Assembly (NCBI GenBank): GCA_017934475.1
Contig: JAGBJN010000003.1
Location: 1,839 to 65,838 of the forward strand
Direction: 5' to 3'
DNA: 64,000 nucleotides
DNA from: Clostridia bacterium
GTDB taxonomy: Bacteria > Bacillota > Clostridia > TANB77 > CAG-508
The translations under genes and the position numbers were made by a program. This document shows positions 9,555-13,318 of the stretch, one piece after another (the first letter of the stretch is position 1; every line of letters begins with the position of its first letter). The notes below the pieces were generated by a model. It was not told where the DNA came from. It did not search any database and was given only the letters and a program-made list of their open reading frames with translations.

Positions 9555-12500
9555 ATGATAAAGATTGAGGACTTTGAAGAAATCCTTAGAGATAATGGGT
9601 TTGAGGAAGATACAATAAAATATATATTAAGTAAGAGCATAAAGGGGCTTTTAAGGGATGGAAATAAAAAAGAGATAGATGCAATACTTAAAGTATTAAA
9701 AGAAAATGGGATTAAAGAAGAATTAATACCTAATTGTTTTTCTGTGCTTAGAAATGGAAAAGCGGAGAAAATAAAGGAAATATTTAACGTTATTAAAAAA
9801 TATGATATAAAAAGAGAATCAGTGGAAAGCTGTTTAATGGTTTTATCTGTTAAAGATGAAAAAAAAATAATAGAAATATTAGAGGTACTTAAGAAATATA
9901 ATATAAGCAAAGAAGCAATAGAAAAATGTTTATCTGTTGTGTGTTATAAAACTGCAAATGAAATTGAAAATACAATAAAAGTATTATTAAAATACAGTAT
10001 AAGTAAAGATGCAATAGAAAATAGTTTGTCTGTATTATCAAGCACAAGTGCTGAAAAAGCAGAGCAAATAATAAAGAATTTAGAAGCAAATAATATAAAA
10101 ACTGAATTGATAGAAAAATGTTTAATAGTTATTGGTAAAGGAAATTCAGATAATATAACTAAAATATTTGAAGTTTTGCAAAAACATGAAATAAACTCTA
10201 AAGCTGTAGAAAACTGTTTATCAGCACTTGCAAGAGGAAATGCAAATGAAATAGATAAAATATTAACAGCTTTAGAAGAAACAGGCATAAAAAAAGAATC
10301 GATAGAAAACTGTTTAAGCGTTATTGCAATAGGAAAAAGTGATAGAATAATAAAAGTATTAGATGTTCTAAAAAAATATCATATAAGTGGATCAATCGTT
10401 GAAAATAGTTTATCTGTTTTATCAAAATTTGATGCAGATGAAATGGAGAAGATATTAAAAGAATTAGAAAGAAGTAATATAACTCCTGATAAAATAGATA
10501 ATTGTTTATTAGTTTTAACAAAAGGAAATTTTGGTAATATTAAAGAAGTATTAGAAACATTGAATAAATATGAAATAGCTGCTGAAAATGTTCAAAATAT
10601 TACTGCTATTCTATTAAGAAAAAGTGCAAAAGATGTGGATGATGCACTTAAATATTTACAAAGTAACAACATAAAAAAATATACAATAGAAAAATATTTG
10701 TATTCTTTTTTAATCAATAGCAAACTAAAAGATATCACACAGATTTTTATAGATAATAAAATTGATTTAAATAATATTGATTGGAAATATCTAAATTATG
10801 TATCAAAGGAAAATAAAGATGAAATAGTAAAAATATTTACTTGTTTAAGAGAAAATCAAATTAGTAATAGTGTGATTGAGAAAAATATAGGAACTATATT
10901 GAAGTATAATTCAAAAAATTCGAAAAATATAACGGAAGTAGTAAAATTATTAAATAAAAATAAAATTAAAAAATCAATAATAGAAGATAATTTGAAGGAT
11001 ATAGTTCAAAAAGATGTTGATCTTATAAAGGAGATATTTACTATACTTGAAGAAAATAATGTAGATAGAGAATTAATTCAAAAATATTTTAAGAAAGTAA
11101 TAAATGTAAAGCCAAAAGAACTTAAAGAAAGCTTTGAAGTTTTAAAAAAGAATAATATTAGTGAGAAAAATATATTAAGACTTTTACCTGAAATGCTAGA
11201 GACAAAAACAGAAGATAAAGCCAATAAGTTTAGAAAAATATTTGAAGTATTAAAAGAAAACAATATTAGTACAGAGGTAATAGATAACTGTATTGTAGTT
11301 CTTGAAAAGGGAAATGCCGAGAATATAAAAGAAATTATTAAAATACTTAAAGAAAAGAAAATAAAAATCGAATCAATAGAGAATTGTTTAGTTGTATTAG
11401 GAAAAGGAAATCCAAATAATATAAAGAGAATATTTGATGTACTTGAAAAACATGAAATAAATTCAGAAGCAATAGAAAAATGTTTATCTATATTAGCAAA
11501 AGGAAAAATAGAAGAAATAGATAACATATTAACATTATTTGAAAATCTTGAGATAAAAAAAGAATCAATAGAAAATTGTTTATCTGTTATAGCTAGTGGA
11601 AAATGTGAAGAAATAAAAAAGACATTATATATTTTAGAAAAACACAAAATAGGTAAAGAGGCAATAGAAAAATGTTTGTCTGTTTTATCAAAAGCAAATT
11701 CAAAAGAAATAGAGAAAAATTTAATAGTATTAGAAAAAAATAATATAACACCTGATAAAATAGAAAATTGTTTATCTGTATTACTGTTAGGTAAAGCAAG
11801 TGAAATAGAAAAAAATATTAAATTTTGGGAACAACAAGGTGTTGAATTTGAGATTATTGTAAATTGTTTGACTTCACTTTTAAGTGATAATACTGAAAGA
11901 ATAAAAAATGTAATTGATGTTTTTGAGAAAAATGGAATAGAGTTTGAAATAGTGAAGAAAAATATATCATTAGTTGAAAAATTTAATGACAAAGAAATAG
12001 AAAAAATTTTTAATGTGTTTAGAAAATATGAAATAGATACAAGTTTTGTTAAAAATTGTGTTTCAATGTTTGCATATGCTAAGGCTGAAACAATAGAAAA
12101 TGTATTCAACATTATGTTTGAAAATGGAATAGAAAGAAATAGATTAAAAGATGTTTTTACAAAATTCTATTTTAACTATAGAATGCTATTTTCAAATCCA
12201 GCATATATAAGAGATATATTTAAGAAAGAGCCTATTAGAGTAAAAGAATATATTAAAATGACTGGAACTTATGATAGAATTGTTTCATTAGATGAAGTAA
12301 AAAGAGTATGCGAATATAAAAAAATAAGTATAGAAGAGTTCATAAATATAAATGTAAATGAAAAAATTTCTGATGCTTTGAGTAAAGTTTTAATGAAAAA
12401 AGGAAGTATTTATATAGGAAAATCGATACCTATGAATAAAGAATTCCTTGAAAATAATAAAGAATGGTTATTAAAATATTCAAAGATGATTGCTTCAAAA

Positions 12501-13016
12501 TTTTCAACTACATTTTTATTAAAAGATAGAACAGAAATAGAAAGTGTAGCAATGGAAATTTTAATTACAAGATGTGGAGATATTGCATATAACTTTGGTG
12601 AAAATGAAGAAATTCTAAAACGCGCAATTTTTCGTAAATGCTGGAATAGATTAATGGTATATAGAGAAAGCAAATATATGGAAATAAACGTTTCTGATAG
12701 TTTTTCAGATGAATATTTAAGGAGAAAATGGAAAAAGTCTAAAATAGAAGGTAAAAAGGAAAATAATAAAAAATTAGATTTAGATAGATGGGATGTAAAT
12801 CAAGAAGAAACTAATTTGTTATTTATGTTATCAAAAGTTTTAGAAGAAGGGTATAGTGATTTAGATGCTTTTGAAGAAGTAGCAGATAGAATGGGAATTA
12901 AAATTGAAGATATAGTTTCAAAAATAGAAGTTATTAGAGAAAAAAATAAAATGCTTGCAGGAAACAGAAAAAATAAAAATACAGATTATCAAAAAAGAAA
13001 CGGAGATGAAAGGTGA
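9555..13016 (+). CDS. 1153-aa protein: ~26 tandem 32-aa helical repeats (mTERF/TALE-like) plus a sigma-70-like C-terminal region
   Basis: Repeat unit such as IKKESIENCLSVIAIGKSDRIIKVLDVLKKYH is iterated from about residue 20 to 880. The C-terminus has region-2-like (EIESVAMEILI...ILKRAIFRKCWNRLMVY) and region-4-like (EETNLLFML...EEVADRMGIKIEDIVSKIEVIREK) patterns. Confidence 0.85.
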   Translation: MIKIEDFEEILRDNGFEEDTIKYILSKSIKGLLRDGNKKEIDAILKVLKENGIKEELIPNCFSVLRNGKAEKIKEIFNVIKKYDIKRESVESCLMVLSVKDEKKIIEILEVLKKYNISKEAIEKCLSVVCYKTANEIENTIKVLLKYSISKDAIENSLSVLSSTSAEKAEQIIKNLEANNIKTELIEKCLIVIGKGNSDNITKIFEVLQKHEINSKAVENCLSALARGNANEIDKILTALEETGIKKESIENCLSVIAIGKSDRIIKVLDVLKKYHISGSIVENSLSVLSKFDADEMEKILKELERSNITPDKIDNCLLVLTKGNFGNIKEVLETLNKYEIAAENVQNITAILLRKSAKDVDDALKYLQSNNIKKYTIEKYLYSFLINSKLKDITQIFIDNKIDLNNIDWKYLNYVSKENKDEIVKIFTCLRENQISNSVIEKNIGTILKYNSKNSKNITEVVKLLNKNKIKKSIIEDNLKDIVQKDVDLIKEIFTILEENNVDRELIQKYFKKVINVKPKELKESFEVLKKNNISEKNILRLLPEMLETKTEDKANKFRKIFEVLKENNISTEVIDNCIVVLEKGNAENIKEIIKILKEKKIKIESIENCLVVLGKGNPNNIKRIFDVLEKHEINSEAIEKCLSILAKGKIEEIDNILTLFENLEIKKESIENCLSVIASGKCEEIKKTLYILEKHKIGKEAIEKCLSVLSKANSKEIEKNLIVLEKNNITPDKIENCLSVLLLGKASEIEKNIKFWEQQGVEFEIIVNCLTSLLSDNTERIKNVIDVFEKNGIEFEIVKKNISLVEKFNDKEIEKIFNVFRKYEIDTSFVKNCVSMFAYAKAETIENVFNIMFENGIERNRLKDVFTKFYFNYRMLFSNPAYIRDIFKKEPIRVKEYIKMTGTYDRIVSLDEVKRVCEYKKISIEEFININVNEKISDALSKVLMKKGSIYIGKSIPMNKEFLENNKEWLLKYSKMIASKFSTTFLLKDRTEIESVAMEILITRCGDIAYNFGENEEILKRAIFRKCWNRLMVYRESKYMEINVSDSFSDEYLRRKWKKSKIEGKKENNKKLDLDRWDVNQEETNLLFMLSKVLEEGYSDLDAFEEVADRMGIKIEDIVSKIEVIREKNKMLAGNRKNKNTDYQKRNGDER

Positions 13017-13318
13017 TAATGGATTATTTAAAAGAATATGATATTACAGATAGTCAAATTCATAATTTAAAAGTCAGATACAATAGTGGGATAATTGAAT
13101 TTTTAGAAAAAAATGCTGAATTTGTTGAAGAAAAATTTAACTATTTACAGAAAGAAAAAATTGTATTATTATATGAAGTAATGTATAATAATATAAAAAT
13201 ATTTCTTGAAGAAATATCAGAGTTAAAAAGAAAAATAGGAAAAATGAAAGAACAAGAAATTTCATTAAAAGCAATGAATATGATATTAATTGAAGAAGAT
13301 TTATATGATTTAATATAG
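13013..13318 (+). CDS. Small (99-101 aa) helical protein translationally coupled to the repeat protein
   Basis: GTG at 13013 overlaps the upstream TGA stop; an ATG follows at 13019. The N-terminus resembles one repeat unit of the upstream protein (LKEYDITDSQIHNL...IIEFLEKN). Confidence 0.6.
   Translation: MIMDYLKEYDITDSQIHNLKVRYNSGIIEFLEKNAEFVEEKFNYLQKEKIVLLYEVMYNNIKIFLEEISELKRKIGKMKEQEISLKAMNMILIEEDLYDLI

Follow-up and report, generated by a model that had tools for sequence, protein, structure and literature searches.

We analyzed a pair of adjacent genes in a 64,000-nucleotide stretch of Clostridia bacterium DNA (assembly GCA_017934475.1, contig JAGBJN010000003.1, positions 1,839 to 65,838 of the forward strand), hereafter referred to as the window. 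The larger gene encodes a protein of 1153 amino acids (aa), most of which is occupied by tandem 32-residue units that are followed by a nonrepetitive C-terminal module; the smaller gene, located directly downstream, encodes a protein of 99 aa (Table 1). An earlier note on this DNA had described the large product as an array of mTERF/TALE-like repeats fused to a sigma-70-like C-terminus and the small one as its partner. As will be seen, structural modeling predicts that the large protein is, at the level of fold, an α-solenoid of the mTERF/TALE type, while its C-terminal module of ca. 260 residues defines a small family restricted to Clostridia.

Table 1. Features of the repeat-protein locus and of the protein segments encoded there (window coordinates).
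Feature	Coordinates	Strand	Description
Repeat-protein gene	9555..13016	+	1153 aa, stop included; identical product on 8 contigs; syntenic orthologue P0011 is 778 aa long
N-terminal cap, residues 1-52	9555..9710	+	Helix-extended-helix start and a half unit; aligns with N-termini of P0001 and other relatives; pLDDT ~90 in AF2 model
Array A, residues 53-372	9711..10670	+	10 regular 32-aa units; unit HMM E 1e-14 to 1e-18 each
Degenerate units, residues 373-570	10671..11264	+	~6 units, net charge +9; includes the LLPEMLETK unit; weak HMM matches
Array B, residues 571-860	11265..12134	+	9 units, the final three degenerating; unit HMM
Strand-helix-helix-helix-strand domain, residues 890-960	12222..12434	+	YxxLxGxY and G-x-IYIG-x-S-x-P motifs; pLDDT 85-94; conserved in 84 relatives
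Three long helices, residues 961-1041	12435..12677	+	AF2 helices 969-987, 992-1014, 1018-1041; pLDDT 87-92
Charged linker, residues 1042-1082	12678..12800	+	pLDDT 31-35 (disordered at ~1042-1076); poorly conserved
Acidic tri-helical HTH-like end, residues 1083-1153	12801..13013	+	AF2 helices 1083-1097, 1102-1113, 1117-1150; pLDDT ~70
Junction GGAGATGAAAGGTGA	13002..13016	+	GGAG and AGGTGA, both Shine-Dalgarno-like, within the terminal part of the repeat-protein gene
Partner gene	13019..13318	+	99 aa from ATG 13019; NCBI MBP3255272.1, 99 aa; alternative start GTG 13013 overlapping the TGA stop

The repetitive nature of the large protein is evident from BLOSUM62 self-similarity of its residues 1-880, which peaks at lags of 32, 64, 96 and 128 residues; the lag-32 score is 1.12 compared with -0.70 +/- 0.08 for 500 shuffled sequences (z = 23.4), and the last ~290 residues are devoid of periodicity. 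A hidden Markov model (HMM) of the unit, whose consensus reads I-K-K-E-A-I-E-N-C-L-S-V-L-S-K-G-N-A-E-E-I-K-K-I-L-K-V-L-E-K-Y-N, recovered 25 units between residues 32 and 857 and left one slot (residues 373-414) undetected, bringing the total to 26-27 slots. The earlier count of about 26 tandem 32-aa units is thus borne out, with 25-27 units spread over residues ~21-860. The degenerate segment that separates the two regular arrays (residues 373-570) is conserved in P0011, which shares its gene order with the window gene (locus L016) and is therefore its orthologue (here and below, P numbers denote relatives of the large protein, and L numbers denote their loci). The same 1153-aa sequence recurs unchanged on 8 independently assembled contigs, so that the array did not arise from misassembly. 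At the DNA level the 96-nt tandem signal is weak and covers positions 11322-11783, from which it follows that the units are old and diverged. Pfam, NCBIfam, PHROGs and PADLOC assigned no meaningful family to the large protein, to its C-terminal module taken alone or to the partner; matches to RFC1_C, NIL and GatE were discarded as low-complexity repeat noise. Sequence searches of the PDB with the single protein and with 4-sequence and 87-sequence profiles returned only a designed PPR protein (E 4e-6 and 7e-5) and, otherwise, noise.

Residues 1-404 were modeled by AlphaFold2 (AF2) using a 5-row alignment; the mean predicted local distance difference test score (pLDDT) was 79.5, with values of ~86-93 over the first 280 residues. 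In the model, each 32-aa unit folds into three helices of ~6, 5 and 13 residues. Comparison of this model with the PDB by Foldseek returned a TALE structure, 6jw5_A, as the best match (E 3.2e-4), followed by eight MTERF1 entries (3mva, 3n6s and others; E 5e-4 to 3e-3, probability 1.0, template modeling (TM) score up to 0.61) and by MTERF3, MTERF4 and a Tetrahymena mitoribosomal mTERF, so that the MTERF1, MTERF3 and MTERF4 matches together span E 5e-4 to 1e-2. Designed helical repeats ranked lower. TPR, HEAT, ARM, PPR and Sel1 proteins were absent from these matches, which rules out a generic TPR/HEAT scaffold. At the sequence level, the window protein matched neither PF02536 (mTERF) nor TALE models at E ≤ 1; the PF02536 result was the same for P0001, P0002 and P0004, and this model was not found among 87 relatives at E ≤ 0.01. 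The conserved proline of mTERF motifs is missing from the window units, which read N-C-L-S-V-L, L-L-P-E-M-L being present in one unit only. The likeness to mTERF and TALE repeats put forward in the earlier note therefore stands for the fold but finds no support in the sequence.

In common with eukaryotic mTERFs, the window protein is predicted to consist of ~30-residue three-helix units stacked as a superhelix, and relatives with 31-aa units carry a C-P-x-I-L motif. Unlike in eukaryotic mTERFs, the window units are tandem and regular rather than interspersed, the host is bacterial, and there is an extra C-terminal module. With TALE-like proteins (the AvrBs3 family, BurrH/Bat and STAR were compared) the protein shares a unit length of 32-34 residues and a unit number that varies among relatives. 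It differs from them in that the first helix of the predicted unit is kinked, giving three helices as opposed to two in TALEs, and in that there is no TALE Pfam match, secretion signal, nuclear localization signal or activation domain, the gene being found in the chromosomal housekeeping context of a gut anaerobe.

A bacterial precedent for such arrays exists in pTERF, prokaryotic mTERF-like tandem-repeat DNA-binding proteins described by Hu et al. (Nucleic Acids Research 2024; PMC11417379). pTERF1 (MBQ3414883.1) comes from a ruminant-gut Clostridia metagenome-assembled genome (MAG), consists of tandem three-helix units that resemble MTERF1 (3MVA) in AF2 models, and specifically binds the double-stranded DNA (dsDNA) target ACTNNNAGTC with a dissociation constant of 1.87 nM; pTERF2 recognizes a different motif, also as specific dsDNA and with nM affinity (PMC11417379). 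According to the same source, pTERF family members contain 3-11 units (mostly fewer than six) whose arrangement varies between members, the predicted targets of pTERF1 and pTERF2 are enriched for RNA-metabolism terms, and the mTERF signature consists of a conserved proline at motif position 8 and leucine heptads. By its catalogue label, pTERF1 has a period of 35 aa. The MAG that hosts the window (ENA label XIEF21) originates from the same ruminant-gut study as the MAGs of pTERF1 and pTERF2 (reference 127 of PMC11417379), and all of them are uncultured Clostridia. The window protein and pTERF proteins further share strictly tandem three-helix units, little sequence similarity to eukaryotic mTERFs with no Pro8/Leu heptad signature, and a majority of family members with few units. 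It is thus plausible, by study, taxon and fold, that the window protein belongs to the pTERF family, with which it was compared by description only. The view of the earlier note that the architecture has not been described in bacteria is outdated as far as the repeats are concerned because pTERF has been published (PMC11417379), but it holds for the C-terminal module: the word "sigma" has no occurrences in the pTERF report, and neither a conserved C-terminal module nor a partner gene is described in the part of it that was available. Bacterial mTERF-like solenoids, first reported in 2024, bear on the origin of organellar mTERFs and are possible programmable DNA binders.

The C-terminal part of the protein (residues 802-1153) was modeled by AF2 from a 4-row alignment with a mean pLDDT of 72. 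The most confident part of the model is the domain formed by residues 890-960. The helical segment that comes after it (residues 961-1041) contains a sigma region-2-like pattern of family-invariant residues, D-x-x-E-[LI]-E-S ... C-G-[DN] ... N, and the helix-turn-helix (HTH)-like end contains a pattern similar to that of sigma region 4.2, E-x-G-Y-S ... helix ... G-I-x-I-E-E. Word-indexed searches retrieved only P0001 (710 aa, 12 units and the same C-terminus, 28% identity to the window protein), the fragments P0003 and P0004, and the repeats-only P0002. An exhaustive profile search with two units and the C-terminus yielded 173 clusters (50% identity) at E ≤ 1e-3, including 39 at E ≤ 1e-30, and a full-length C-terminal module (~245 aa) is present in 84 of the 173. 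The family consensus comprises the motifs Y-x-x-L-x-G-x-Y, G-x-I-[WY]-I-G-x-S-x-P, D-x-x-[DE]-L-E-S, C-G-[DN]-I-x-x-N-F and E-x-G-[YL]. Within the limits of the search patterns used, scanning of GTDB species genomes found a single locus, L015. There were no tblastn matches to the C-terminal module in phage and plasmid collections, and the gene is thus not evidently mobile.

What precedes the module differs from one relative to another. Relatives with 32-aa repeats have 0-12 units, or ~22 units in the case of a 952-aa protein of L015; 31-aa units with a C-P-x-I-L-A-x-G-K motif are present in P0055-57 and P0070, 29-aa units in P0050, P0058 and P0068, and five to nine repeats of ~75 aa in P0089, P0126, P0135, P0073 and others (loci L019 and L025). 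The ~75-aa repeats match Pfam models of Cro/C1- and Xre-type HTH domains (HTH_3 with a best E of 8e-8; HTH_26 in 8 members), so that in these relatives proven DNA-binding domains occupy the slot of the solenoid. Within the family, it is the module that seems to stay constant. It is combined with at least four repeat types of which two are recognizably DNA-binding, a pattern suggesting that DNA-targeting arrays can be exchanged on an effector module that does not change. Such tandem-HTH arrays (with a motif such as DFAQILGINYSNYxNIK) fused to the same C-terminal module are in themselves an unusual architecture. Examination of relatives, which the earlier note had proposed, confirmed that unit number varies (0-22), including between the syntenic orthologues of 778 and 1153 aa, P0011 having about ten fewer units than the window protein. 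With ~26 units, the window array is the longest among the relatives listed (≤ ~22) and exceeds the 3-11 units of published pTERFs.

Several relatives show peculiarities of gene structure. In L015 (positions 238-4133), one partner gene is located between two paralogous family genes, the second of which codes for the 952-aa protein; the ~22 nearly identical units of this protein point to recent amplification of units. Genes of the L015 type are also represented by the fragments P0003 and P0004. In L017 (positions 2525-7148) and also in L018, an 836-aa repeats-only open reading frame (ORF) extends into the beginning of P0017 (715 aa). The P0017 frame continues upstream as in-frame repeats, the two frames meeting near L017 4895-4900, and the pair looks like one ~1530-aa gene split by a single +1 shift. 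There is no homopolymer at the split site, and the same split is found on several independent contigs. The repeats-only P0039 (1015 aa) stops at an equivalent E-N-C-L-S-x-L-x-x-R-R point.

The proposed sigma-70 character of the C-terminus was examined by structure and by sequence. In the PDB, sigma factors were the first Foldseek matches of the C-terminal model, namely SigE (1or7, E 0.65), SigB, a chain of 9n9q, CnrH (4cxf) and Thermus SigA, with E values of 0.65-1.9 and probabilities of 0.16-0.28. Sigma factors also came first in BFVD (E 0.08-0.4, probability 0.6-0.9), where the matches included a "specialized sigma subunit-like" protein (E 0.077, probability 0.87), two Synechococcus-phage sigma factors (probability 0.60 and 0.75), SigS and others. 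A relaxed hhalign comparison with RpoE was colinear from region 2 to region 4 (E = 0.15), as were helix lengths and the E-G-x-S...G-x-x-x-E pattern. Sigma70 Pfam models, the profile check that the earlier note had called for, matched neither the window protein nor 87 relatives at E ≤ 0.01 nor 8 isolated C-terminal modules even at E ≤ 10, and the HTH-like end of these isolated modules gave no HTH or sigma Pfam match at the latter threshold. A PDB search with the 87-sequence profile reached SigA at E 0.16 only. The region-4-like segment (residues 1083-1130) has a net charge of -7 and an isoelectric point (pI) of 4.3, which argues against -35 recognition. No sigma gene that could serve as a closer comparator was present in the window or in the relatives' loci examined.

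Compared with two-domain sigma-70 factors similar to those of the extracytoplasmic function (ECF) group (RpoE 1or7, CnrH 4cxf and phage proteins), the module as modeled has helices that fit in order and length (three long helices, a flexible linker and a tri-helical HTH). It differs in having no profile support, in its acidic HTH, the recognition helix of sigma region 4.2 being basic, and in the ~890-residue N-terminal extension, which, to our knowledge, is unlike that of any sigma factor. Thus, of the earlier sigma-70 proposal, the placement of sigma factors at the top of both Foldseek lists is retained, albeit without significance, while Pfam and hhalign results and the acidic HTH run counter to it. 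We consider the chances about even that the module has a sigma2-linker-sigma4-like fold and regard its action on the RNA polymerase (RNAP) core as a more doubtful proposition; the sigma reading is a weakly supported lead and not a result. The third PDB match, the chain of 9n9q, belongs to an entry titled "RNA-guided transcription complex", which probably comes from the dCas12f-sigmaE work. In that system (bioRxiv 2025; PMC12259090, PMC12259091), programmable DNA targeting is coupled to a sigma factor without canonical promoter reading. It is a functional analogue only, since targeting there relies on a guide RNA in a separate protein, whereas here a protein-repeat array is fused to the module, and dCas12f-sigmaE has no homology to the window array.

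Variation between units was considered as a possible source of specificity. It had been suggested that variation is concentrated in the six residues after CLSVL. Among the window units this is partly so: there is a moderate enrichment, positions 14-19 averaging 2.26 bits of entropy compared with 1.67 bits elsewhere, but equally high variability is seen at positions 3, 31, 27 and 5. In young, near-identical arrays (the 952-aa protein of L015, P0006 and P0057 were examined), variability is greatest, or joint greatest, at position 15, the residue directly preceding the conserved G-K, and positions 11, 19 and 30 come next. Position 15 is therefore a candidate specificity position. In TALE repeats, the repeat-variable di-residue (RVD) is followed by G-G-K. 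The location of the variable loop residue immediately before G-K is thus reminiscent of TALEs, whose 33-35-aa repeats differ in having a hypervariable di-residue at positions 12/13 as opposed to the one main variable residue of the young arrays.

The start codon of the partner gene is probably ATG 13019, 2 nt past the stop of the repeat gene, because homologues (M-[DEN]-Y-L-K) and the NCBI call begin there. The earlier note had the partner ORF overlap the stop codon; the GTG start at 13013 makes this possible, but the homologues and the NCBI call favor the nonoverlapping arrangement. The large gene and the partner are likely co-translated from one mRNA. The partner is acidic (pI 4.8), has no family in Pfam, NCBIfam, PHROG or PADLOC, and is 38% identical over its whole length to the ORF that follows P0001 (E 5e-18). 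Partners of 94-99 aa are located within 2-22 nt of the large gene in L001, L015, L016, L017 and L020, which, together with the window, makes six loci. The resemblance of its beginning to a repeat unit, noted earlier, was not significant (hhalign 1% against the repeats), and neither was its relationship to the N-terminal cap (hhalign 16%). The suggestion that the partner acts as an anti-sigma factor did not fare better: no anti-sigma domain was found, the zinc-binding HxxxCxxC anti-sigma motif is absent since the partner has no His or Cys, and outside the clade with 32-aa units the partner does not accompany the module.

Taken together, these data are best described, with a probability of ca. 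40%, by a DNA-targeted transcription regulator in which a pTERF-type array finds the target and the constant C-terminal module contacts the transcription machinery. The array would be the targeting part and would bind dsDNA, as pTERF1 and pTERF2 do, along its superhelical groove, while residues around the loop that precedes the conserved G16-K17 (positions 11, 14 and 15) may add specificity in the manner of TALE and pTERF proteins. The C-terminal module would be the effector and, more speculatively, would contact the transcription machinery via a degenerate sigma-like fold; it would then be the array, and not the acidic HTH, that selects the promoter or site. The 99-aa partner is likely to bind to the large protein and to modulate or cap it. 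Should it turn out that the module engages RNAP, bacteria would have a novel means of directing transcription, and a ready-made scaffold for synthetic regulators would be at hand; otherwise, the locus remains a tractable case in which to study pTERF-type action in a native host. To what has been described for pTERF, the locus adds the longest array among the listed relatives, a conserved unannotated module of ~260 residues, a small conserved partner and a candidate specificity position.

A number of observations weigh against this regulator model. With pI values of 5.4-6.4, the regular arrays range from neutral to acidic, and in two relatives the net charge amounts to -19 (P0006) and -38 (P0017); such arrays are unusual for DNA binders, and this is the main unexplained point against DNA binding. 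The window repeat protein matched no nucleic-acid-binding or sigma model in Pfam, NCBIfam, PHROG or PADLOC. Variation within the window protein is diffuse and does not amount to a clean two-residue code. The period reported for pTERF1 is 35 aa, as opposed to 32 aa here; a 35-aa period was found in none of the listed relatives. As regards the C-terminal module, no Foldseek match to PDB or BFVD entries reached E ≤ 1e-3, the sigma matches having E > 0.07 and TM ≤ 0.35, and hhalign comparison of an 84-sequence profile with E. coli RpoE, FecI, FliA, RpoH and RpoS gave 0.2-2.1%, i.e., noise level, in a test of low power given that the sigma side contained only 1-5 sequences. The AF2 models themselves were built on alignments of only 4-5 sequences. 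Finally, no partner gene follows four relatives that have 31-aa, 29-aa or HTH repeats and the same C-terminal module; with the partner missing outside the 32-aa clade, it is not an obligatory partner of the module.

The alternative that survives best, although we regard it as rather unlikely, retains the DNA-binding solenoid and assigns to the module a function unrelated to sigma, such as a dimerizing winged HTH or HTH or an oligomerization domain, so that the protein would be a repressor or a nucleoid/chromosome organizer of a spore-forming Clostridium, with the array wrapping or bridging DNA. The absence of sequence evidence for sigma is what one would expect in this case, and the best-modeled part of the module is a strand-three-helix-strand domain, not a sigma domain. 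In addition, the pTERF1 motif is an inverted repeat, expected for a dimeric HTH, and the frequent neighbors of family genes are polC, mutS, smc, holA, ruvC and rnhB, with a spoIIIA operon in the window. On the other hand, it is sigma factors and not generic HTH regulators that head both Foldseek lists, the terminal HTH, with its pI of 4.3, is poorly suited for DNA contact, and the association with neighboring genes is anecdotal.

A bolder version of the regulator model, which we consider improbable, is that of a protein-only programmable sigma factor, with the array reading a long DNA address and the module docking onto the RNAP core to give non-canonical transcription starts, and with the partner being an anti-sigma or release factor. 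In such a scheme approximately one unit would read one base or base step, the fused, degenerate sigma2/sigma4 module would open DNA without -35/-10 elements, and relatives would do likewise with HTH-repeat arrays, which would make the system a protein-repeat counterpart of dCas12f-sigmaE.

Many α-solenoids bind peptides or proteins. A protein-protein scaffold, in which the solenoid would bind no nucleic acid while the module and the partner would serve as interaction modules, agrees with the acidity of the arrays and of several relatives, with the absence of DNA-binding family matches to the window protein, and with the presence of a designed PPR and of designed helical-repeat proteins among the weaker matches. 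We nevertheless consider it more improbable still, as the fold matches are TALE and mTERF proteins, which are nucleic-acid binders, with TPR, HEAT and ARM absent, as HTH repeats take the place of the solenoid in relatives, and as pTERF proteins bind DNA (PMC11417379). Least probable of all is an RNA-binding solenoid with a role in RNA maturation or ribosome biogenesis (cf. MTERF4 and plant mTERFs acting on rRNA or introns), which would suit the MTERF4 and mitoribosomal mTERF fold matches and the RNA-metabolism terms among predicted pTERF1/pTERF2 targets but not the dsDNA binding of pTERF1/2, the only bacterial relatives tested (PMC11417379), nor the fact that RNA-processing domains or neighbors were not seen and that the window contains no Rfam RNA.

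The repeat gene is located on the ordinary chromosome of a spore former. The window has a GC content of ~25%, and its PolC, thymidine phosphorylase and partner genes carry J6M60 locus tags at NCBI under the label "MAG: Clostridia bacterium". Upstream of the repeat gene are a 1125-aa coiled-coil protein, PolC (window 3820-8625) and a divergent 241-aa ORF; downstream there are DUF1294, a CmpB-like membrane protein, a 114-aa ORF, a TPR-like protein, thymidine phosphorylase, TraX, YebC and the spoIIIA operon. A defense system was ruled out given this housekeeping context and the absence of a PADLOC match. tRNA and Rfam scans of the window detected no tRNA and no Rfam RNA, terminator-like sites were absent within 9200-14700, and a promoter scan was uninformative in DNA of 25% GC (47 sites against 43.5 expected). 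A 344-aa antisense ORF (11078-12112, reverse strand) is wholly inside the repeat region; in all likelihood it reflects the repetitive, A-rich composition of the coding strand and does not represent a gene.

Family genes repeatedly adjoin genes of replication, repair and chromosome maintenance, namely polC, mutS (two loci), smc (two loci), holA with ruvC, and rnhB; this observation is anecdotal and is based on L001, L015, L017, L020, L022, L025 and the window. Several other proteins encoded in the window are worth mentioning. The 1125-aa ORF located directly upstream of polC (403-3780, forward strand) has an extremely high content of K, E, N and Q, suggestive of a long coiled coil; it lacks clear periodicity and matched no Pfam family at E ≤ 1e-5. 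The 241-aa ORF (8642-9367, reverse strand) has no family in Pfam, NCBIfam, PHROGs or PADLOC, and an ORF of the same length at the matching position beside the orthologue in L016 indicates that it is conserved in synteny. Also kept in L016, downstream of the orthologue, is a 571-aa counterpart of the TPR-like protein (15080-16909, forward strand; 609 aa), which has an N-terminal TPR-like array with a period of ~30 aa (TPR_19, E 9e-13) and a K/E-rich middle part. Finally, the gene at 20186-23026 (forward strand), just upstream of the spoIIIA operon (23185 onward), encodes a protein of 946 aa that contains a bacterial thrombospondin type 3 (TSP3) repeat.

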